Shown one piece after another: positions 3,110-30,383 of a DNA stretch of 64,000 nucleotides. The stretch is from a virus. Lineage: Duplodnaviria; Caudoviricetes. A program made the position numbers and the translations under genes. The notes under the pieces are model-generated. The model was given only the letters and a program-made list of their open reading frames with translations, did not search any database and was not told where the DNA came from. The DNA lies in the IMG/VR virus record IMGVR_UViG_3300028591_000142, positions 1 to 64,000 of that record; one strand, 5' to 3'. How positions within the stretch are numbered: the stretch's first letter is position 1; each line of letters opens with the position of its first letter.

Positions 3110-3739
3110 ATGACAGAGTCAATAATAGCAACGCTTTTAGAGATATTAAAACAAAATGACGACATAACAATCAGCACTTATAGTAATGAATCTGTAAATT
3201 TTGTTATAAATAGGTTTTTAACTATATGGGATGAATATGCGGCAGGACGCATCATTTTTAACCCAAACTCTCATATCTATCAAGAGGAATACGGAGTTGG
3301 CAAGGTAATTATGTATAAGTTTTTAAGGGCGGTTTTTATCGACAGAGTATTAAACATAAAGGTTTCTGCTGGGTTTTACATAAATATAAACCCCGATGGA
3401 ACGCAATACTCGTTTGGTATATGTCCCAAAAGTCTTACTCAAAGTATTCTTTGTCCTGAATACGAAGATTATCTTCCACATCCGAACACATATTATCACG
3501 ACTTAGGAAGTGACTTTTGGGTAATATCCCGTTCTTTGAAAGACAGGAATTATAAACTCTCGATTTCTTTTATGTCGGAATTTGTGTCAGCATTACAGGT
3601 TTCGGATGCCGTTTTGTTTCAAAGATTTTTGCGTGATTTGTTTGTAGACAAAAAAGAACTACGGTGTGTGGTTCTGCCAACGGGGGAATCAATGACAGCA
3701 TTAGAAGCAATAGATTGGTTATCTGTGCATCGTACTTGA
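3110..3739 (+). CDS. paralog of the C-terminal E2-like domain of 5834-7291, lacking the putative catalytic Cys
   Basis: YKFLRAVFIDR vs YRFLKAVFLDR; HPNTYYHDLG vs NPHLYHFHCMG; RFLRDLF..LRCVVLPTG vs RFAGDLF..LECIELPDG. Confidence 0.75.
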   Translation: MTESIIATLLEILKQNDDITISTYSNESVNFVINRFLTIWDEYAAGRIIFNPNSHIYQEEYGVGKVIMYKFLRAVFIDRVLNIKVSAGFYININPDGTQYSFGICPKSLTQSILCPEYEDYLPHPNTYYHDLGSDFWVISRSLKDRNYKLSISFMSEFVSALQVSDAVLFQRFLRDLFVDKKELRCVVLPTGESMTALEAIDWLSVHRT

Positions 3740-3753
3740 GGGGAGTAAAACAT

Positions 3754-3975
3754 ATGAACTGGAAAATAAACAACGACGACTACCAATTTAATTTAACAGC
3801 AGGGGAATTAGAAGCCGTCCTTGAAGCAAGGGTTAAGGGTTCTAAAACAACCTTAAAAGAGATTTTCGAGAAAGGCAAAAACGAGGGTTTTTGGAACGGC
3901 TTTTGGGTCGGAACTCTTGTGTCTGGTTTCCTTGCTGTTTTCATATCATTTCTTTTTTACTTATTTTCAAAATAA
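3754..3975 (+). CDS. small membrane protein
   Basis: RBS gaggggag; C-terminal hydrophobic helix. Confidence 0.7.
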   Translation: MNWKINNDDYQFNLTAGELEAVLEARVKGSKTTLKEIFEKGKNEGFWNGFWVGTLVSGFLAVFISFLFYLFSK

Positions 3976-4982: not shown

Positions 4983-5378
4983 ATGGCAAAAATCACAATT
5001 GCTGGTAACGCAGCAGTAATCACTTCATCAATCAAAATGGAGGACTTAAAGACAGCGAAGAAGTATCGCCCCGAGGCTCTTGTACTGAAGGGCGGGGAAG
5101 ACGGCAAAGAGCCTATCTTTGCGGTTGATGTTGCTTGTCAGGGTTCTCTGAACCAGTACGGTATCACATTTGACAGCGTAGCAAACGACGATAGCGGAAA
5201 CGCTTCAGTAACAATCGCTATTGCTAACAAGGGTGATGATGTTAAGGAAGCGTTTGCTGACGCCGCAGGTGTTGCAATCAACAACCTTAACAAAGTCGAA
5301 GCTCAGCTTCTTCTTGCTCTTGAGGAAATTGATGCTGATAAGGCTGCGGTTATGGAGAGCATTACTGTAATCGCTTAA
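4983..5378 (+). CDS. hypothetical protein upstream of the Ubl
   Basis: RBS aaggagg; followed by the hairpin gaggctgc-gaaa-gcagcctc. Confidence 0.8.
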   Translation: MAKITIAGNAAVITSSIKMEDLKTAKKYRPEALVLKGGEDGKEPIFAVDVACQGSLNQYGITFDSVANDDSGNASVTIAIANKGDDVKEAFADAAGVAINNLNKVEAQLLLALEEIDADKAAVMESITVIA

Positions 5379-5454
5379 TCGGCATTACGTAACGAGGCTG
5401 CGAAAGCAGCCTCACAAATCTACTAAAATATTTTTTTAACAAAGGAGAGTCATT

Positions 5455-5682
5455 ATGATTAGAGTCACAGTAGGTAATAACGTAAAGAGAGAGGTAGTTA
5501 TTGTTCCTGAGAACACTACACTTCGCACAGTTCTTGAAGATAACGGTATTGATTACACAAGAGGTATGCTTCAGCTTGATAGCAGCCCGCTTGCACCCGG
5601 CGACCTTGATAAGAGTTTTGCAGATTTCGGTATTGCTGATAAGTGCTTCCTTATCAATGTTGTAAAGGCTGACAACGCCTAA
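5455..5682 (+). CDS. ubiquitin-like (beta-grasp) protein, C-terminus VVKADNA
   Basis: 75 aa with the beta-grasp pattern IRVTVG..EVVIVPENTTLRTVLE..LDSSPL..DLDKSFADFGI; lies in an operon with E2-like, JAB and E1 genes. Confidence 0.75.
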   Translation: MIRVTVGNNVKREVVIVPENTTLRTVLEDNGIDYTRGMLQLDSSPLAPGDLDKSFADFGIADKCFLINVVKADNA

Positions 5683-5720
5683 ATCTTCCAAGCCCGTCGC
5701 TCGTCGGCGGGCTTTACTAT

Positions 5721-5804
5721 GGGAGATTGGCGGAATGGGCAGACGCACAAGACTTAAAATCTTGTAAAGGGAACTTTGTGAGGGTTCAAGTCCCTCATCT
5801 CCCA
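5721..5804 (+). tRNA. tRNA-Leu(TAA)
   Basis: Acceptor gggagat/atctccc; D loop tggcggaatgggcagacgc; anticodon arm caaga-ctTAAaa-tcttg; long variable arm; T loop ttcaagt. Confidence 0.93.
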
Positions 5805-5833
5805 TTTCACTATTTTAAAGGAGGTTTTTGTGA

Positions 5834-7291
5834 ATGTTTAGGCAGACAGTTTGTGAGACTGGCTTGACCTCGGGAATTGCTAATGAGTATTTTCAAAGCA
5901 TCAATGGCGTAAATTATGACGGCGATAATTCATTTGTCGCTACGCTGAGGGCTTTACTTGCCAATAGAATTGGTGACGGGTATTTAAATTATAGATTATC
6001 AAGACATAACGCAAGTTATTCTGATTTATCAAAAATGTCCGTTAATACCGTTAGAGGTTTCTTTAGCGGGGAAGAGTCGGCGATAGCGGATTGTTCAAAT
6101 ACAATCTCATTATATGAAATCAGTAATATGACTTCGGAGGGTAAAGAATTATTTACCAAGAAATTTGCTCAGGCGTTTCCGGGATACGAAAGGTTGGAAA
6201 AGGTTACTGACTTTTTCCAGAATGCGTTTTTCGTATTATGTTTTATTAACCCGGAACTTAAGAGTGTCATTCTTATCACAGAACAACTTGGTTATCAGAA
6301 ATATCACTACTTACAGTGTGCAACAGTCGCATTTTTCCCGTGGTATTTTTCAGCAAGCGAGGGTATATCTGAAGATGAGATGGCTCTTATTAGTTCGCTT
6401 AGAGAAAAAACGGACGAAAAATATCTGAGCGCTATTGCAAAAATTGCAGAACAGTATAATTTCCGAGAGATATTTATTAAGTCAAAACTTTTGGGTTTTG
6501 AAAATAGATTTGCGGATTATGAAATAAGACGCTCAACAAATGATATTGAACGATTCGAAGCTGATATCGAAAATTATTACCGTTCAATAAGCGATAGATT
6601 ATCACGAATAAACGAACTTAATATAAGAATACTCGGACTTCAGGCAAAGAAGGCTGGTAATTCTGATGATTCAGAATTAATGGAATATTTCTTATCAAAT
6701 AAAAACTTGGTTCTTCAGGACGTAAGCGAGAGTGAGTTATCCTTCTGTGTAAATGGATATCTTTCTGCTTGGGACGAAGAAGCCGCTGAAACATACATAA
6801 ACAACCGTAGTTCTATATGGTATATGACACGCGAGTCCTTTACAGAAAAACAAATATATAGGTTTTTGAAAGCAGTTTTCTTAGACAGAAAATTCAAAAT
6901 CAGAACTTGTTCGGCATTTATATTTGACACACAAAGAGCAAGTGTTACTGCTCGTTCTGGATATGATTTTTCTCATATACAAGAGTGTAAGCAAAGTATT
7001 GCCAATCCGCATCTTTATCATTTCCATTGTATGGGTGACAATGAGAGGATTTGTGTAGAGGCTTTAAGAAATCAGGATTATATATTTGCGTTTGAACAGG
7101 TAATAGCATCAAATGCAAGTTTGAATTTCCACGACAGCCCAGTTACAACAAGGTTTGCTGGCGATTTATTCCGTTCAAGACGTACACTCGAATGTATTGA
7201 ACTTCCGGACGGAAATATCGTAAGTGTAGCACGAGCTATTGAAATACTTGATAACGAAGAAAGGACTGAGGAAAATGGCGAAGATAATTAA
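5834..7291 (+). CDS. coiled-coil protein with a C-terminal prokaryotic E2-like domain
   Basis: Central coiled coil; the motif NPHLYHFHCMG resembles the E2 HPN...C active site; operon context between Ubl and JAB. Confidence 0.6.
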   Translation: MFRQTVCETGLTSGIANEYFQSINGVNYDGDNSFVATLRALLANRIGDGYLNYRLSRHNASYSDLSKMSVNTVRGFFSGEESAIADCSNTISLYEISNMTSEGKELFTKKFAQAFPGYERLEKVTDFFQNAFFVLCFINPELKSVILITEQLGYQKYHYLQCATVAFFPWYFSASEGISEDEMALISSLREKTDEKYLSAIAKIAEQYNFREIFIKSKLLGFENRFADYEIRRSTNDIERFEADIENYYRSISDRLSRINELNIRILGLQAKKAGNSDDSELMEYFLSNKNLVLQDVSESELSFCVNGYLSAWDEEAAETYINNRSSIWYMTRESFTEKQIYRFLKAVFLDRKFKIRTCSAFIFDTQRASVTARSGYDFSHIQECKQSIANPHLYHFHCMGDNERICVEALRNQDYIFAFEQVIASNASLNFHDSPVTTRFAGDLFRSRRTLECIELPDGNIVSVARAIEILDNEERTEENGEDN

Positions 7292-8126
7292 ATTAACCGA
7301 CGAGTATAAAGGCGACATCCTTGATAAATTCAAAAAATTTATCGAGGAAATAAAAATGGCAGACGGTAAAATAAACTTCACCGATACATTTTCGTTGCCA
7401 GAACGGAAAGCAACTTTGCTTTTTTCCGAAAAAGCCTGGATTAAAATGCATCGTCTCGTATCCCATTTCGATAAAGAGGTTGCGTGGCACGGAACCGCAA
7501 GACGAGGTGAGGATGGAAAAGATGAATATATTATTGATGATATTTTCGTCTATCCGCAGGAAGTTACCGGTGCAACCGTAAATACAGACCAAAAGGAATA
7601 TCAGGAGTGGCTTTATGGTCTTGAGGATAATGTATTCAACAACCTTCGTATGCAAGGTCATTCCCACGTCAATATGGGAACAACCCCGAGTGGCGTTGAT
7701 ATTACACATCAGGAAAAAATTATTGAACAACTCGACGACAGTATGTTCTATATTTTCTTGATATGGAATAAAAAAGACGAAAGAACAATCAAAATATATG
7801 ATTTTGCAAAAAATGTTTTGTTTGAAACAGCAGATGTTAATATCGTGGTTCTTGAAGAAGATATAGGAATTATATCGTTCATTGAAGACGCAGACGATAT
7901 GGTAAAAACAAAAACATATACGAGTTCATACGGAAAACAGGACGAAAAGAAAAGTACAACACCGTCAAGTTCTTCAAAAGATAACAAAGATAGCAAAGAG
8001 CTTGAGTTATATGAGGGCGGAAAACGCAAAGGGCGTCGCCGCGAAGAAGATGATGAACTTTCAGAGTATGAAAAAATGTATAAATACGGGAGCGGTTTTA
8101 ATAGCGGTTATCCGTTTGATTATTAA
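7275..8126 (+). CDS. JAB/JAMM (MPN+) metallo-isopeptidase
   Basis: EVAW...QGHSHVNMGTTPSGVD matches the E-x(n)-HxH-x7-S-x2-D JAMM motif. Confidence 0.88.
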   Translation: MAKIIKLTDEYKGDILDKFKKFIEEIKMADGKINFTDTFSLPERKATLLFSEKAWIKMHRLVSHFDKEVAWHGTARRGEDGKDEYIIDDIFVYPQEVTGATVNTDQKEYQEWLYGLEDNVFNNLRMQGHSHVNMGTTPSGVDITHQEKIIEQLDDSMFYIFLIWNKKDERTIKIYDFAKNVLFETADVNIVVLEEDIGIISFIEDADDMVKTKTYTSSYGKQDEKKSTTPSSSSKDNKDSKELELYEGGKRKGRRREEDDELSEYEKMYKYGSGFNSGYPFDY

Positions 8127-8144
8127 TAAAAAGGGGAGATACAT

Positions 8145-8684
8145 ATGACAAGACAGGAATATTATGAGCAGACCGAAACTCTCTGCGATATTATTGAAGT
8201 AGCCAGCGAGTATGGTCACTGGGCTGAATCAATTGTGAACGAAGACAACTATTATAGTTGTGTTAATTCCGACCTCTACGATATGGTCACAGATGGTGGC
8301 TATGACTGGGAAGAAGTCAGAGAGTATCTTGACAACATTCCTACGGGTTATGAACTCTATACTTGTGACGGATGGCTCTGTTATGAACCCGTAAATATGA
8401 CCGTTGAGGAAATCAGAGACGACCTTTTTGACTATCTCTGGGAAAATGGTTATATCGACGAGGAAGACGAAGAAAATGAAGATTCTCCAATTGATATTGA
8501 TTATGATGAAGAACTTGAAGACGTTCTTTATGATGATGCTTGTGATTTCAGTGCGGGTGAAACCATCTCGATTGATGTGCTGATGGTTGCTGCTCACGCA
8601 GAATTTCAGGAAATACAGACAAAACGTGAAAAAGAACAGAAGAAACTTAATGAGGCTTTCCAGGTTTTAACACTTGGTGAATAA
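8145..8684 (+). CDS. highly acidic hypothetical protein
   Basis: ORF with RBS inside the Ubl operon; very Asp/Glu rich. Confidence 0.75.
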   Translation: MTRQEYYEQTETLCDIIEVASEYGHWAESIVNEDNYYSCVNSDLYDMVTDGGYDWEEVREYLDNIPTGYELYTCDGWLCYEPVNMTVEEIRDDLFDYLWENGYIDEEDEENEDSPIDIDYDEELEDVLYDDACDFSAGETISIDVLMVAAHAEFQEIQTKREKEQKKLNEAFQVLTLGE

Positions 8685-8698
8685 CGGGGGTAAATATA

Positions 8699-9370
8699 AT
8701 GAATTTAAGCAAATCTTATGATTTTTTTCAGCCGGATAAAGACACATCTATGATACACATAGTAGGGTGTGGTTCGGTCGGTTCAACGCTTGCGGAAAAT
8801 CTTGCAAGATGTGGAGTAACAAGGTTTACCCTTTGGGATTTTGATACAGTAGAACCTCACAATATTGTTAATCAGATGTTTACTCAAAAAGATGTCGGCA
8901 AAACAAAGGTCGAGGCTCTTCGCGATATCATTATTGAGATAAATCCTGATGCAACAGAAACAATTAAGCTTAAACCCGAGGGTTGGAAGGGCGAAATAAT
9001 GTCCGGGTATATCTTCCTTGCGGTAGATAGTATTGAGATACGCAAGGAAATTGTTGAGAAACACTTAACAAGTTCATTCGTTAAGGCAATCCTTGACTTC
9101 AGAACCCTTCTCGAAGGCGCACAGCATTATGCCGCTGACTGGTCTGTCTATAAAGATAGACAAAACTTGTTGAAAACTATGCAGTTTTCACACGAAGAAG
9201 CCGCAGAAGAAACCCCTGTATCGGCTTGTGGTGTAACGCTTGGAGTCGCAACAACCGTAAGATTGATTTGCGCACTTGGCGTAAACAATTATATAAACTT
9301 TGTAAAAGGTAATGGACTGTGGAAGTTTGTTCAGATAGACGGTTTCCACGGTATTCTTGATTGTTTTTAA
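8699..9370 (+). CDS. ThiF/MoeB/E1 family adenylyltransferase
   Basis: IHIVGCGSVGS nucleotide-binding loop; WDFDTVEPHNIVNQ; candidate catalytic Cys in PVSACG. Confidence 0.92.
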   Translation: MNLSKSYDFFQPDKDTSMIHIVGCGSVGSTLAENLARCGVTRFTLWDFDTVEPHNIVNQMFTQKDVGKTKVEALRDIIIEINPDATETIKLKPEGWKGEIMSGYIFLAVDSIEIRKEIVEKHLTSSFVKAILDFRTLLEGAQHYAADWSVYKDRQNLLKTMQFSHEEAAEETPVSACGVTLGVATTVRLICALGVNNYINFVKGNGLWKFVQIDGFHGILDCF

Positions 9371-9373
9371 GGA

Positions 9374-10013
9374 GTGATTACTATGTCATTAACGGTATCT
9401 CAAAACGCAAACGAGAACGATATCTTGAATGGTATGGTTGCAGACAGGCTCGCCGAAGACTGGAATATATTTGTAAAAGAACGGACGTTTCAATATATTC
9501 GTGGGGCGGATATGAAAGACTGGAATTTTGTACGTCTTTCATATGAAATCACAATAAAAAATGAAATTGCGGAAATGTTCTTAGATGAAAGAATTGTTTT
9601 ATCCAACGAAGAATGTGTGTTCTTGTTAGACAAGGACAACATACTTGATTTTTTGTATCAAGGTTGGTTGGATTCTGATTTTTCGATACAAGATGTTCTC
9701 CGCGATTGCATTAAAGACACAATACAGTTATTTGTTTGTAATAAAAACGAGGGTATTGAAAATGGATGATATGAATACAATTTTTACACGAGATGAAGCC
9801 GCTAATATAGTGGAAAAGTTCGAAGAAGTGTTAATTGAAAACAATATCTGTGTACCAAGTCCAGAAGATGATGAAAGAGAGCCCGATGATATGATTGGGC
9901 TTTACGGAACAGTCTATTTTGGACTCGTAGATTACGTCGAATCCAAGATAAAAGATATCCTTGAAAGATATAAGAATGGTGAAGATGTGGTCACTGAAAT
10001 GTTTTATTATTGA
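9374..10013 (+). CDS. two hypothetical ORFs (9374-9769; 9762-10013)
   Basis: Coupled ORFs with RBSs. Confidence 0.65.
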
Positions 10014-10383: not shown

Positions 10384-11526
10384 ATGGTTTATTTAACTAC
10401 AAGACTTAATAAGCAAACCCACCAGATGTCGCTTGAAGAGTTGATGTTTGGTACAAGCACTCCGGTTCCTACCGGGTTTAATGTTCAGGGTACAAGCACG
10501 AGGACGGTTTGTGTAAATAGTATACCCGAAAAGTATCTTGAAAAGCTTAACAGACAGCTTTTAATCAGAACCTTGTATGATTTTAACCGTAAGTACAAGG
10601 ATTTAAGAGAGAAGCCAAGGAAAGAGCTGTATCGTGAGTTCCATATACCCAAAAAGAGCGGTGGTTTAAGAAAAATTGATGCTCCGGAACCGGAACTTAT
10701 GGACGCCCTACGTGAATTAAAAGATATATTTGAAAAAGAGTTCGGTGTATTATATCATACATCGGCTTTTGCTTATGTAAAGGGCAGATGTGCCGTAGAT
10801 GCCGTAAAAAAGCATCAGGCAAATGAGTCCAGATGGTTTGGAAAGTTTGATTTATCAAACTTCTTTGGCAGTACCACACTTGAATTTGTAATGAAAATGT
10901 TTTCTCAGGTTTTCCCGTTTTCTGAGATTGTTAAACTCGAGATGGGAAGAGAAGCGTTGGAAACGGCTCTTGAACTTGCATTTCTTGACGGTGGTTTACC
11001 GCAGGGAACTCCGATTTCGCCACTTATCACCAATGTAATGATGATTCCTGTTGATTATAAATTAACAAAAACATTAAGCGACTACGAAAAACAAAAATAT
11101 ATTTACACAAGGTATGCTGATGACTTTATAATCTCATCTAAATATGATTTTGACTTTAAAAAGATTGAGAGTTTGATAAAGTCCACTCTTGCAGAGTTTG
11201 ATGCGCCGTTTACCATTAAGTCCCAAAAGACAAGATATGGTTCTGCAAATGGTTCAAACTGGAATCTTGGAGTAATGCTTAATAAAGACGGGAAAATCAC
11301 CGTTGGTCATAAGAAAAAGCGTCAGTTTAAGGCAATGGTAACATCATATGTACTCGATAGGAAAAACGGTATGGAGTGGGAACGTACTGATGTTCAGGTT
11401 CTTGACGGGTATCGTAATTATTACAAGTCCGTAGAGGGTAATTGTATTGATGATATCGTTAAAAAAATCGGCGATAAGTTCGGTGTTGATGTCTTTGCAC
11501 TTTTAAAAGCCGACTTAAGGAAATAA
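10384..11526 (+). CDS. retron-type reverse transcriptase
   Basis: IPKKSGGLRKIDAP; region-X-like DAVKKH; KFDLSNFF; LPQGTPISP; YTRYADD; NLGV region-Y-like. Stand-alone 380 aa with no maturase or endonuclease domain. Confidence 0.92.
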   Translation: MVYLTTRLNKQTHQMSLEELMFGTSTPVPTGFNVQGTSTRTVCVNSIPEKYLEKLNRQLLIRTLYDFNRKYKDLREKPRKELYREFHIPKKSGGLRKIDAPEPELMDALRELKDIFEKEFGVLYHTSAFAYVKGRCAVDAVKKHQANESRWFGKFDLSNFFGSTTLEFVMKMFSQVFPFSEIVKLEMGREALETALELAFLDGGLPQGTPISPLITNVMMIPVDYKLTKTLSDYEKQKYIYTRYADDFIISSKYDFDFKKIESLIKSTLAEFDAPFTIKSQKTRYGSANGSNWNLGVMLNKDGKITVGHKKKRQFKAMVTSYVLDRKNGMEWERTDVQVLDGYRNYYKSVEGNCIDDIVKKIGDKFGVDVFALLKADLRK

Positions 11527-21964: not shown

Positions 21965-22067
21965 ACTGTTGGAAATATAAACACCCAGAAAACCCAATTG
22001 TATAAAGGGTTTATGGGGTGCGTGATGAGATACTATAATGATAATCTCTCGATAGGAGGTGAGTAAG

Positions 22068-23231
22068 ATGGTTTATCTTGATAATGCAGCAACGACACAA
22101 CCAGACCCGGCAGTTGTCGAAGAAATGCTACCGTTTTTTCGGGAAGCATATGGAAATCCGGGTACACTTTATCAGCTTGGAAGAGAAGCAAGACAGGCTG
22201 TTGATTTGGCTCGTGAACGTGTGGCATTATTTATCGGAGCAAAACCAGAGCAAATAGTTTTTACTTCGGGGGGAACCGAAGCAAATAATATGGTTTTTTA
22301 CTCGTTGCGTAATTATTTGCACAAACAAAACAAAACTCATATTATCACATCAATGACGGAACACGACTCTGTTTTTAGAACAGTTAATGAAATGTGTATA
22401 AAACACGGTTTTTATTCATCATTTATAAAGCCAAACATAAACGGTGTGGTTTTAGCTTCTGAAGTCCAAAAGGAAATTAAGCCGAACCTTACAGGAATAG
22501 TATCCGTAATGCATACTAATAATGAAACCGGAGCGGTGAATCCGGTCGCAGATATAGGAAAGTTATGTGGGAACAACGGAATACTTTTCCATACCGACTG
22601 TGTGCAGGCAGCAAGTTCATCACGGTTAAATGTAGATGAGCTTTGTTGTGACTTCCTTTCAATATCTTCTCATAAGATATATGGGTGCAAGGGAGTGGGT
22701 GCTTTGTATGTTAAAACACCAGAGTTAATACGTCCGTTAATAATCGGTGGTTCTCATCAGGAGTTTGGTTTACGAGGCGGAACTGAAAACGTGCCTGGAA
22801 TCGTAGGCTTTGGTAAGGCTTGCGAACTCGCAAACGAATGGATTGATAAAGCAAACGAAAAGTATGGAGTTTTAAAAGAAGCTTTTTATGAAGCTCTATA
22901 TAAAACCCTAGACAAAGATGGCTTTGCAGATATAATCCACATTAATGGAACTGGAATTACAGAAAGCGGCAAGATACTTAATATCAATTTTGATGGTGTA
23001 GACGGCGAAACATTACTTTTAATGCTTGATGCCGCCGGGATTTGTGTTTCCGCAGGTTCGGCTTGCAGGAGTCACGAACAAGAGCCAAGCAGGGTTTTGT
23101 TAAGTATGGGAATTGACGAAGAGGATGCGAGAAATTCTATCAGAGTTTCGTTTTCAATTAAACAGTCGTTGTCAGAAGTTCAGTTTGCCGGTGAGAGGAT
23201 AGGGGATTTGATATGCCAACTTTTGATTTAG
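22068..23231 (+). CDS. iscS: cysteine desulfurase (IscS/NifS family)
   Basis: YLDNAATT; FTSGGTEANN; SSHKIYG (PLP lysine); RGGTENV; SAGSAC (catalytic Cys). Confidence 0.93.
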   Translation: MVYLDNAATTQPDPAVVEEMLPFFREAYGNPGTLYQLGREARQAVDLARERVALFIGAKPEQIVFTSGGTEANNMVFYSLRNYLHKQNKTHIITSMTEHDSVFRTVNEMCIKHGFYSSFIKPNINGVVLASEVQKEIKPNLTGIVSVMHTNNETGAVNPVADIGKLCGNNGILFHTDCVQAASSSRLNVDELCCDFLSISSHKIYGCKGVGALYVKTPELIRPLIIGGSHQEFGLRGGTENVPGIVGFGKACELANEWIDKANEKYGVLKEAFYEALYKTLDKDGFADIIHINGTGITESGKILNINFDGVDGETLLLMLDAAGICVSAGSACRSHEQEPSRVLLSMGIDEEDARNSIRVSFSIKQSLSEVQFAGERIGDLICQLLI

Positions 23232-29244: not shown

Positions 29245-30198
29245 ATGTATAACGAAGAAATAAAGAGAAGGTTTATTGAGTCATACACCAAAAGCGACGC
29301 TAATCGAGCACAATGTGAACGGGCTTTTGAAAAAACACAAGAGCTTGAAGAAAAATATGGTATTGACCTTTGTGAGTTCGATGTTAAGCAAATGCAAGAG
29401 GCTTTTGATTTAATCTCCGGAAGACAAACAAACAGTCAGTTAGGACGATTTACTATTCTAAAAGCCTATTCAAAATGGTGCATCAACCAGGGTATTCCAA
29501 ATGCAAAAGAAAGTATCTCGGAAATCAGTTCCGTGAGTTTGGAAAAAGTCAAAAGGCAAATGGTTAGCAGTCCGACACACCTTCAGTTCTTTTTAGATTC
29601 GGTTTATGAAAAGGAAGACAGAAACACAACCGATAATGTGTCGCGGTGTTTTTACTGGCTTGCATTTAGTGGAGTTAAAATTGAAGATGCTATAGAACTG
29701 ACGGCATCAAATATTGATTTTACTAATATGCTTATTAAGGTCAGAGATGAGGAATATCCCATCTATCGTGAAGCCGTTCCGTCGCTACGGAATTGCATTA
29801 ATCTCACAGCTTTTGAGTATAATCACCCGAGGTATTCCACGACACTCAAACAGGTGAGAAGCTCCTCAGACCAGTTATTAAGGCTTATAGGGACAGATGC
29901 TACGCTACAGGGAATTAGAGATAAAACTTCTCGTACAACCAGAAAGGCAATTAAAGAAGGGAAAACGAATATAGAATTGAGTTACTCAAGAGTTCGTTTG
30001 TCTGGGTTTTTTTACAGGATTTATGAACTTGAAAGGATAGGAATTAAACCAAGGTTTACTCAACTTGCAGTTGCCCTTATGGAAGGTAAAGAATATAGTC
30101 TTGAAAAAAGCAGGCATACGGTAGAGGGGACAATAAGAATAATAAACAACAGATATAAAAAAGACTACGAGCGTTGGAAACAGGCATTTTATTCTTGA
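29245..30198 (+). CDS. MrpR/YopR-like phage master repressor (tyrosine-recombinase fold)
   Basis: MYNEEIKRRFI..E..YGIDLCEF..Y.KW and LAFSGV..VRLSG resemble SPbeta YopR; no HxxR catalytic motif. Confidence 0.7.
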   Translation: MYNEEIKRRFIESYTKSDANRAQCERAFEKTQELEEKYGIDLCEFDVKQMQEAFDLISGRQTNSQLGRFTILKAYSKWCINQGIPNAKESISEISSVSLEKVKRQMVSSPTHLQFFLDSVYEKEDRNTTDNVSRCFYWLAFSGVKIEDAIELTASNIDFTNMLIKVRDEEYPIYREAVPSLRNCINLTAFEYNHPRYSTTLKQVRSSSDQLLRLIGTDATLQGIRDKTSRTTRKAIKEGKTNIELSYSRVRLSGFFYRIYELERIGIKPRFTQLAVALMEGKEYSLEKSRHTVEGTIRIINNRYKKDYERWKQAFYS

Positions 30199-30207
30199 TT
30201 TAAAATT

Positions 30208-30235
30208 AAAAACCTGTGTTATAACAGGTTTTTAA
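30208..30235 (+). terminator. intrinsic terminator after the mrpR-like gene
   Basis: aaaaacctgt-gttata-acaggttttt. Confidence 0.65.
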
Positions 30236-30276
30236 ATACATAGTCAACACTAAAATACAAAACGCACTTTATATAT

Positions 30277-30347
30277 TGGGATGTAGTCTAACGGCAGGAC
30301 ACGTGACTTTGACTCACGGCGTAGTGGTTCGATTCCACTCATCCCAG
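30277..30347 (+). tRNA. tRNA-Gln(TTG)
   Basis: Acceptor tgggatg/catccca; anticodon arm cgtga-ctTTGac-tcacg; T loop ttcgatt. Confidence 0.92.
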
Positions 30348-30383
30348 TTTTTATTTTTTATAAACAAAAGAGGATATGTAAAT

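Follow-up and report, generated by a model that had tools for sequence, protein, structure and literature searches.

In the papers found, bacterial ubiquitin-type conjugation, as performed by Cap2/3 of CBASS (cyclic oligonucleotide-based antiphage signalling system), Bil and Bub, is a host weapon against phages. Cap2 substrates may end in Gly or Ala (PMC10097602). In Bil, the ubiquitin-like protein (Ubl) BilA is trimmed by a JAB peptidase (PMC10557695), and the conjugating enzyme (E2) is thought to pick the targets. In Bub, a Ubl-E2 polyprotein (BubAB) is cut by JAB (PMC11601596); the Bub E2 and activating enzyme (E1) are devoid of catalytic cysteines and work via oxyesters, and the operon includes a DUF6527 serine protease. 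The present analysis concerns a kit of this type that a gut-phage lineage keeps as core genes. It was found at 4983-9370 of a 64,000-nucleotide stretch of a Caudoviricetes virus (positions 1 to 64,000 of IMG/VR record IMGVR_UViG_3300028591_000142), called here the window, and comprises the genes of p133, a Ubl candidate, an E2-like protein (E2L), a JAB peptidase and an E1. Together these would, on balance, probably form a real phage-encoded Ubl conjugation pathway operating with an Ala terminus. In the literature search, no paper was found that describes a Ubl/E2/JAB/E1 kit encoded by a phage, or such a kit paired with a reverse transcriptase (RT).

The virus record to which the window belongs measures 98.3 kb, and the window's DNA was contained in full in a sheep-gut metagenome run. 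The genes encoded include those for DNA polymerase, helicase, primase, NrdD, tail proteins and an endolysin. The module and the features that accompany it are as follows:

4983..5378, + strand: p133, a 131-aa acidic protein of no known family (synteny and fusions to the Ubl)
5455..5682, + strand: Ubl candidate, 75 aa, ending VVKADNA (C-terminus conservation, weak fold signals)
5720..5805, + strand: tRNA-Leu(TAA) (ARAGORN)
5834..7291, + strand: E2L, 485 aa, with a predicted C-terminal UBC/RWD-like domain (AlphaFold and VIA-align)
7275..8126, + strand: JAB/JAMM (MPN+) metallopeptidase with a low-complexity C-terminal tail (JAMM motif, Rpn11 match)
8145..8684, + strand: very acidic 179-aa open reading frame (ORF) in the variable slot between JAB and E1 (position only, no family match)
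8699..9370, + strand: minimal ThiF-type E1, 223 aa (Pfam ThiF, E 4.5e-23)
10384..11526, + strand: retron-type RT (PADLOC RT_II-A, E 6.5e-48)

A preliminary description of this DNA, made from the sequence alone, had listed the KADNA-ended 75-aa protein, the NPH...C protein, the JAMM peptidase and the ThiF/E1 as one operon starting at 5455. All these genes were found in place; the start was not, since the module begins one gene earlier, p133 and the Ubl-p133 fusions having been overlooked. The module genes are co-oriented, each with a Shine-Dalgarno site, and are separated by gaps of 3-18 nt or overlap, as for E2L and JAB, whose reading frames share 17 nt. Homologues and the ribosome-binding site placed the JAB start at ATG 7275 and not at TTG 7239, and a strong Shine-Dalgarno sequence, AAGGAGG, precedes p133. 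GC content at third codon positions reached 0.42 in p133 and 0.37 in the Ubl gene against 0.30-0.36, an excess that is only mild. A promoter and terminator scan of the region gave nothing informative.

Among the described systems, the module would work most like Bil (BilABCD, types I and II, ISG15-like), with which it shares separate Ubl, E2, JAB and E1 genes and the lack of an E3, and in which JAB pre-processes the Ubl, as suggested here. The two differ in several respects. First, the module E1 is a 223-aa protein with a single ThiF domain, and the architecture of BilD (PMC10557695) was not found in it. Second, BilA exposes a conserved Gly, whereas the module Ubl ends in Asn-Ala. Third, E2L reaches 485 aa because it also carries an N-domain and a coiled coil, and it matches no E2 model. 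Fourth, the module is phage-encoded, forms a lineage-wide core and includes the p133 partner. Type II CBASS (Cap2/Cap3) resembles the module in that the module E1 scores best on Cap2-type E1 models, in that an Ala terminus is accepted and in that JAB reverses the reaction. However, CBASS conjugates a CD-NTase and not a small Ubl, and its E2 and E1 are one polypeptide, whereas they are encoded by separate genes in the module; moreover, neither a CD-NTase nor an effector was recognised among ten window proteins scanned with PADLOC and Pfam. The Ubl-p133 fusions find their best precedent in Bub (6E/DUF6527), with its JAB-released polyprotein. The module differs from Bub in the conservation of C177 of E1 and C399 of E2L, in the lack of a DUF6527 match among the module proteins (Pfam), and in p133, which has no sequence similarity to any PDB chain.

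As judged from gene order and fusions, p133 belongs to the module. It yielded no Pfam or PHROG match either, and no similarity to the Ubl in a profile comparison. Its gene was found directly 5′ of the Ubl gene in 65 of 73 loci. Longer Ubl homologues of about 205 aa formed at least 212 clusters, and 119 of the 120 listed were in-frame Ubl-p133 fusions. These were composed of Ubl residues 1-75 followed by p133 from its second residue on, with a junction that invariably read ...K(A/T/S/V)DNA and then A-x-(I/V)-x-(I/V)-x-G. Cleavage behind A75 would thus leave p133 with an N-terminus identical to that of the separate gene's product after methionine removal. Examples of natural fusions are L072:4945-5565 and L075:6462-7082, and the loci with a fusion still carried E2L, JAB, E1 and RT. 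These Rosetta-stone and precursor patterns, in which the terminal extensions of the Ubl described below are included, tie p133 to the Ubl as its partner and possibly its substrate, which makes it the first candidate target. The extended and fused forms, in turn, would be precursors that give JAB an obligatory processing job.

In some loci, the substrate genes were amplified: the order ubl-p133-p133-ubl was observed at L136:907-2456, and p133 with two Ubl-p133 fusions and a free Ubl ending KADNAAA at L138:732-3144. This amplification is reminiscent of polyubiquitin and ubiquitin-fusion gene families. Eukaryotic ubiquitin is produced from precursor genes, namely polyubiquitin and ubiquitin-ribosomal protein fusions, that are cut exactly at the C-terminus of the tag. 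An extremely conserved tag, extra copies and linear fusion to a partner are common to both cases; on the other hand, the two are not related in sequence, a fold being all that they might share, and the partner is here a phage protein.

The terminus of the Ubl candidate was found to be conserved throughout the family. The homologue search returned 664 clusters, and in 98 of the 120 listed, from which the terminus counts derive, KADNA was the exact end; the remaining ones extended past it by A, AA, T, HI, VIA or 7-22 unrelated residues. K71, D73, N74 and A75 were conserved in at least 95%, the final residues remained (K)xDNA in wider relatives, and both the extensions and the p133 fusions began immediately after A75. 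A conserved C-terminal tail, exposed directly or through precursor processing, is a trait of ubiquitin-like modifiers that was thus found in this candidate, while their C-terminal Gly or Gly-Gly was replaced by Asn-Ala family-wide. The Ala end in place of Gly-Gly, pointed out in the preliminary description, therefore holds for the family, and a Gly or Ala end is documented for Cap2 substrates (PMC10097602). The fold was approached indirectly. Weak matches to Pfam DUF2604 were obtained for 12 of 26 Ubl members (best E 0.005), the search with the window's own record giving none. The nearest named Atlas cluster was ThiS (0.86), and hhalign against ubiquitin gave a collinear match that was insignificant. 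The Ubl profile retrieved from the PDB one chance caspase row and nothing else. On this indirect evidence, the 75-aa protein is a candidate for the beta-grasp fold.

The assignment of the 485-aa protein as E2-like depends on structure prediction. E2L (5834-7291), which contains ANPHLYHFHCMG, gave no sequence match in Pfam, PHROG, PADLOC, NCBIfam or PDB, and 35 members scanned singly gave no match to an E2 family of Pfam (UQ_con, Prok-E2_A to E) at E<=1. The family is large, comprising 371 clusters by a word-indexed search and 2390 clusters at 50% identity and E<=1e-3 by an exhaustive one, with nearly all of 270 listed clusters measuring 470-540 aa. The full-length AlphaFold model, with a predicted local distance difference test (pLDDT) score of 88.8, comprised an N-domain spanning residues 1-221, a single long helix (222-275) and a C-domain (278-480), the latter reaching a pLDDT of 93.9 and a predicted template modelling score of 0.88 when folded alone. 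VIA-align compared this C-domain with 48,161 chains, and the top 50 were nearly all RWD or E2 folds (Z 7.3-4.1, 87-125 residues aligned). The RWD matches included the SEA complex (Z 7.3, 92 residues), Knl1 (Z 7.1), Ltn1, GCN2 and FANCL. The Bil E2 8tyz_C (87 residues aligned, 16% identical) followed with Z 5.9, and eukaryotic E2s with Z 4.1-5.2, of which Ube2W, Ubc9, UBE2F and Ubc13 scored 4.6-5.2 over 93-112 residues. A repeat of the structural comparison returned the same fold classes. Because the match list is consistent, although the Z values themselves are modest, the C-domain is predicted to have the alpha-beta4-alpha superfold of UBC/RWD domains.

Within this domain, N391, H393, C399 and G401 were conserved in at least 95% of 70 sequences. 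The segment N391-P-H393...C399 lies between beta4 and alpha2, where E2s carry HPN...Cys, a correspondence by segment in which the motif order is NPH. The coiled-coil protein with NPH...C of the preliminary description is thus recovered in the model as the long helix and the invariant motif, and the UBC-type fold on which that description had made its reading depend was found in the AlphaFold model of the 5834 product, which supports its E2-like label. Other searches were less productive. Neither the full model nor the C-domain had a Foldseek match in the PDB at E<=0.001, the 55-residue helix dominated the results when the full model was used in the wide VIA search, and a BFVD search retrieved one uncharacterised Siphoviridae protein only. 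For the N-domain, Atlas gave nothing usable, hhalign against the C-domain gave nothing, and no Cys of the N-domain reached 95% conservation.

The catalytic motifs of the two remaining enzymes were complete. JAB presented the JAMM/MPN+ motif E...HxH...S..D as E68, H129-S-H131, S139 and D142, invariant in 17 sequences and conserved in at least 95% of 66. Its family profile matched a sole PDB protein, Rpn11 (E 0.009), with the catalytic residues aligned, and the PADLOC JAB model was matched at E 0.0027; the JAMM peptidase named beforehand is therefore sustained. The same applies to the ThiF/E1, in which Pfam ThiF covered residues 16-213 (E 4.5e-23), the Cap2 E1-E2 models of PADLOC were matched down to 1.7e-19 and NCBIfam 6A-MBL cap2_3 at 6.4e-20. 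Its best PDB matches were Uba1, UBA5, MoeB, TcdA, Cap2 and MccB (MccB at E 2e-6). The hallmarks of the Rossmann-type adenylation domain of the ThiF/MoeB/E1 superfamily were present, with GCGxxG (G23-C-G25..G28), D47, K70, D110 and C177 conserved in at least 95% of 57 sequences. C177, in the sequence ETPVSAC, is a conserved cysteine of a loop region that may, by position only, correspond to C184 of ThiF and C250 of UBA5, cysteines of the crossover loop that can accept the acyl group. The protein is a single adenylation domain, lacking a CxxC zinc site, a separate Cys domain and a ubiquitin-fold domain.

The gene order was conserved across independent viral loci. In IMG/VR, p133-ubl-e2-jab-e1-rt was found in 65 of 73 loci anchored on E2L, the exceptions being apparently fusions or loci lacking one or two of the genes, and the RT lay 3′ of E1 in 72 of these 73. 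The same order occurred in 63 of 79 loci anchored on the RT, where every locus with enough upstream DNA had the kit. Together with the 2390 clusters of the E2-like family, this order indicates that the operon is not a chance assembly. The co-occurrence of operon and RT across phages, proposed beforehand as a check, was hence kept in both directions, within one phage lineage only, and their adjacency may be inherited synteny. Median identities to the window were 71% for Ubl, 63 for E1, 60 for RT, 50 for p133, 45 for JAB and 36 for E2L. The Ubl is thus the most conserved module protein and E2L the fastest-evolving one, with identities down to 27%, and its fast evolution fits a target-selecting role, as proposed for the Bil E2s. 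The module was retained across E2L identities of 27-55%.

The source records of the related loci measured 60-139 kb. Four near-complete relatives had 112-139 kb, one of them with terminal repeats, and some were classed as proviruses. Only 16 of 185,579 species genomes, all but one of these 16 labelled metagenome-assembled genomes, contained the kit. They were mostly Clostridia (Oscillospiraceae, Acutalibacteraceae, Ruminococcus), and the lineage therefore probably consists of gut phages with clostridial hosts. Contigs identical to the window were also found in two sheep-gut metatranscriptome runs of one sample, covering the E2L paralogue described below (3182-3895), p133 with the 5′ end of Ubl, the tRNA with the 5′ end of E2L, JAB and RT. 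The p133 contig was the deepest (20 vs about 5), a figure that cannot rank genes or prove transcription; the uncovered stretches are uninformative, and the contigs are only a hint of expression.

The gene content, catalytic motifs, fold class of the E2L C-domain, fusions and extensions, and synteny were established directly, whereas the following scheme is inferred as regards the beta-grasp fold of the Ubl, every chemical step, the site of cleavage, the targets and the role in the phage's biology. The Ubl would be made ready to use (...KADNA), as a short-tailed precursor, or as a Ubl-p133 polyprotein, and the JAMM peptidase would cut after Ala75, releasing p133 with an Ala N-terminus. The minimal ThiF-type E1, probably a homodimer, would adenylate the C-terminal Ala and the Ubl would be passed to the loop Cys177. 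From there, the Ubl would move to Cys399 of the E2L C-domain, with N391 and H393 acting as the HPN motif of E2s. There being no E3 partner, the fast-evolving N-domain and the coiled coil of E2L would probably select the target, and E2L would attach the Ubl to lysines, p133 coming first among the candidates. JAB may also reverse conjugation. Since the module is universal in the lineage, a core phage function (takeover, assembly or counter-defence) is favoured over swappable cargo. New here are the membership of p133 and its fusions to the Ubl, the structural evidence on E2L and the tests that speak against a sulfur relay.

Several observations weigh against this scheme. The sequence signals for the Ubl fold are weak. 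E2L has no sequence match to E2 families, Foldseek was blank, all Z values stayed below 8, the best structural matches were non-catalytic RWD domains, and the motif reads NPH instead of HPN. Because the E1 is devoid of a separate Cys domain and a ubiquitin-fold domain, transfer from E1 to E2 is unsupported by its architecture. The fusion links p133 to the Ubl and does not make it the target. The RNA-library contigs are no proof of transcription. Should the pathway be active, ubiquitin-like tagging would be shown to be used by bacterial viruses as well, and the known E1/E2 chemistry would be widened. The kit is built from unannotated families: its Ubl ends in Asn-Ala, its E1 is minimal and its giant E2-like protein is beyond the reach of sequence methods, and the Ubl-p133 fusions provide a concrete candidate partner, hence a testable biochemical system.

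Other features of the window are as follows:

3110..3739, + strand: UEV (ubiquitin E2 variant)-like stand-alone paralogue of the E2L C-domain (BLASTP, E 7e-21)
9374-9769, + strand: DUF3848 protein (E 7.6e-11), starting 3 nt past the E1 stop
22059..23231, + strand: IscS/NifS-like cysteine desulfurase (Pfam Aminotran_5, E 5.9e-79)
29245-30348: 317-aa protein with an MrpR-type core-binding domain (domain match), followed by tRNA-Gln(TTG)

The paralogue matched E2L residues 280-472. In this protein, both conserved cysteines are replaced, C359 by S and C399 by D, an HPN-like motif being retained, and it was present in the window only, being absent from the other sampled loci (about 160). Since it shows that the fold tolerates the loss of these cysteines, their retention in E2L suggests a function. 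The MrpR-type domain is presumably of the recombinase/integrase type; this recombinase-like gene, the tRNA-Gln and the provirus calls for relatives suggest a temperate lifestyle.

It may be, as a tentative extension that we hold to be unlikely, that p133, Ubl, E2L, JAB and E1 constitute with the RT and its RNA cassettes one virus-side system. In it, the Ubl pathway would build or regulate an RT-linked machine for counter-defence or takeover, with p133 as an abundant dedicated substrate and the fused form of some lineages as a pre-conjugated one. If true, a bacterial virus would here, for the first time, be the user and not the target of a ubiquitination-type pathway.

With the biochemistry unchanged, the role might instead be prophage-borne anti-phage defence, that is, a Bil-like tagging of the proteins of competing phages, beside a retron in a defence island. 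The signs of a temperate phage in the window, the classification of relatives as proviruses and the integrase that adjoins the kit locus of the closest relative (L007) would agree with this role, as would the RT, which scores as a retron RT, and the literature searched, in which the characterised E1/E2/JAB/Ubl systems are defences. However, defence cargo is usually patchy, and the module was found in every sampled relative with enough sequence; its divergence follows that of the phage (E2L down to 27%), it lies inside a long + strand block with replication genes, and its Ubl and p133 genes are multiplied or fused, as would suit a product required in large amounts. A defensive role thus appears unlikely.

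An improbable alternative to the lysine conjugation proposed above is that the Ubl is activated for another purpose. The Ala could be a cap and Asn74 the reactive residue, in a succinimide formation or nucleotidylation like that of MccB, or the Ubl could be ligated to a lipid, to a nucleic acid such as the RT product, or to the N-terminal amine of p133. It was observed that N74 is conserved as well as A75, that MccB is among the PDB matches of E1, that the RT is adjacent, and that a linear Ubl-p133 fusion mimics an N-terminal conjugate. Likewise, BilA ends in Gly-Ala, from which the Ala must go before adenylation (PMC10557695). Yet about 80% of the listed Ubl genes stop exactly past A75, and variable sequence begins only after this residue, whereas in BilA the residues after the Gly are not conserved. 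Moreover, the E1 is nearer to Uba1, UBA5 and Cap2 than to MccB, and lacks the peptide-clamp domain of the latter.

The preliminary description had offered as its own alternative a sulfur relay with the phage IscS. In such a relay, E1 would adenylate the small protein, the desulfurase would convert it into a thiocarboxylate, and the sulfur would go to a cofactor or tRNA, JAB only trimming. The gene of this desulfurase is indeed present, in the window and in four of four near-complete relatives; the phages carry many tRNAs; the E1 is of ThiF/MoeB length and is matched by ThiF and MoeB models; and a ThiS/MoaD-like cluster is the nearest named one to the Ubl. A ThiF-size E1 with a loop cysteine, a small carrier and JAMM trimming are also what the module has in common with ThiS/MoaD and ThiF/MoeB, SAMP/UbaA/JAMM and TtuB/TtuC. 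These systems, however, need no E2, and the known sulfur carriers (ThiS, MoaD, Urm1, SAMPs, TtuB) end in Gly-Gly, whereas the module has an Asn-Ala end and a conserved UBC/RWD-like protein with an invariant Cys, for which a relay has no place. The desulfurase lies 13-15 kb or more away from the kit (at least 15 kb in the four relatives), five genomes searched for a PP-loop thiolase (PF01171, PF03054) yielded none, and the p133 fusion is left unexplained. Thus, a Gly-Gly carrier and a linked sulfurtransferase were missing from the module, as was, by these two thiolase families, a sulfur-accepting enzyme, and with no Gly-Gly end, an E2-like protein always present, the desulfurase unlinked and no thiolase, the relay is weakened to a distinctly improbable reading.

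Finally, it is very improbable that E2L is a non-catalytic RWD-type scaffold in an E2-less Ubl/E1/JAB system like the archaeal SAMP/UbaA/JAMM or Thermus TtuB/TtuC, with E1 conjugating directly, since, despite non-catalytic RWD matches (Z 6.3-7.3) that rank above E2s (Z 4-5.9) and the lack of a sequence match to any E2 family, N391, H393, C399 and G401 are kept at the E2 active-site position in proteins as little as 27% identical, and the strict retention of a Cys whose loss the paralogue shows to be tolerated suggests function.

Neither the tRNA-Leu nor the 179-aa ORF is a core part of the module. The tRNA-Leu(TAA) inserted after the Ubl gene, reported in the preliminary description, is present in the window; it does not belong to the operon design, as the three related loci scanned, L001, L003 and L005, have no tRNA in this position and carry tRNA-Leu(TAA) in an array 3′ of the RT instead. 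At L001:14541-15787, an array of 11 tRNAs, including tRNA-Leu(TAA), lies just downstream of the RT. The 179-aa acidic ORF gave no family match in Pfam/PADLOC/PHROG/NCBIfam-type scans and may be an unrelated inserted gene (moron), such as a DNA mimic. Its slot was occupied by a 182-aa ORF in L007/L008, compared by position only, and by a 61-aa ORF between JAB and E1 in L009/L010, with nothing called between these genes in L001-L006 and L011-L012.

The slot of the DUF3848 gene holds other genes in relatives (DUF6273, an 83-aa ORF); DUF3848 occurs typically in the polyvalent proteins that conjugative elements and phages encode. On the other side of the module, where the window has no such gene, a 505-aa DUF2828/DUF7788 protein is encoded one or two genes 5′ of p133 at L001:5813-7330 and also in L002-L006, and we take DUF2828/DUF7788 to be related to Ro60/TROVE and vWA proteins.

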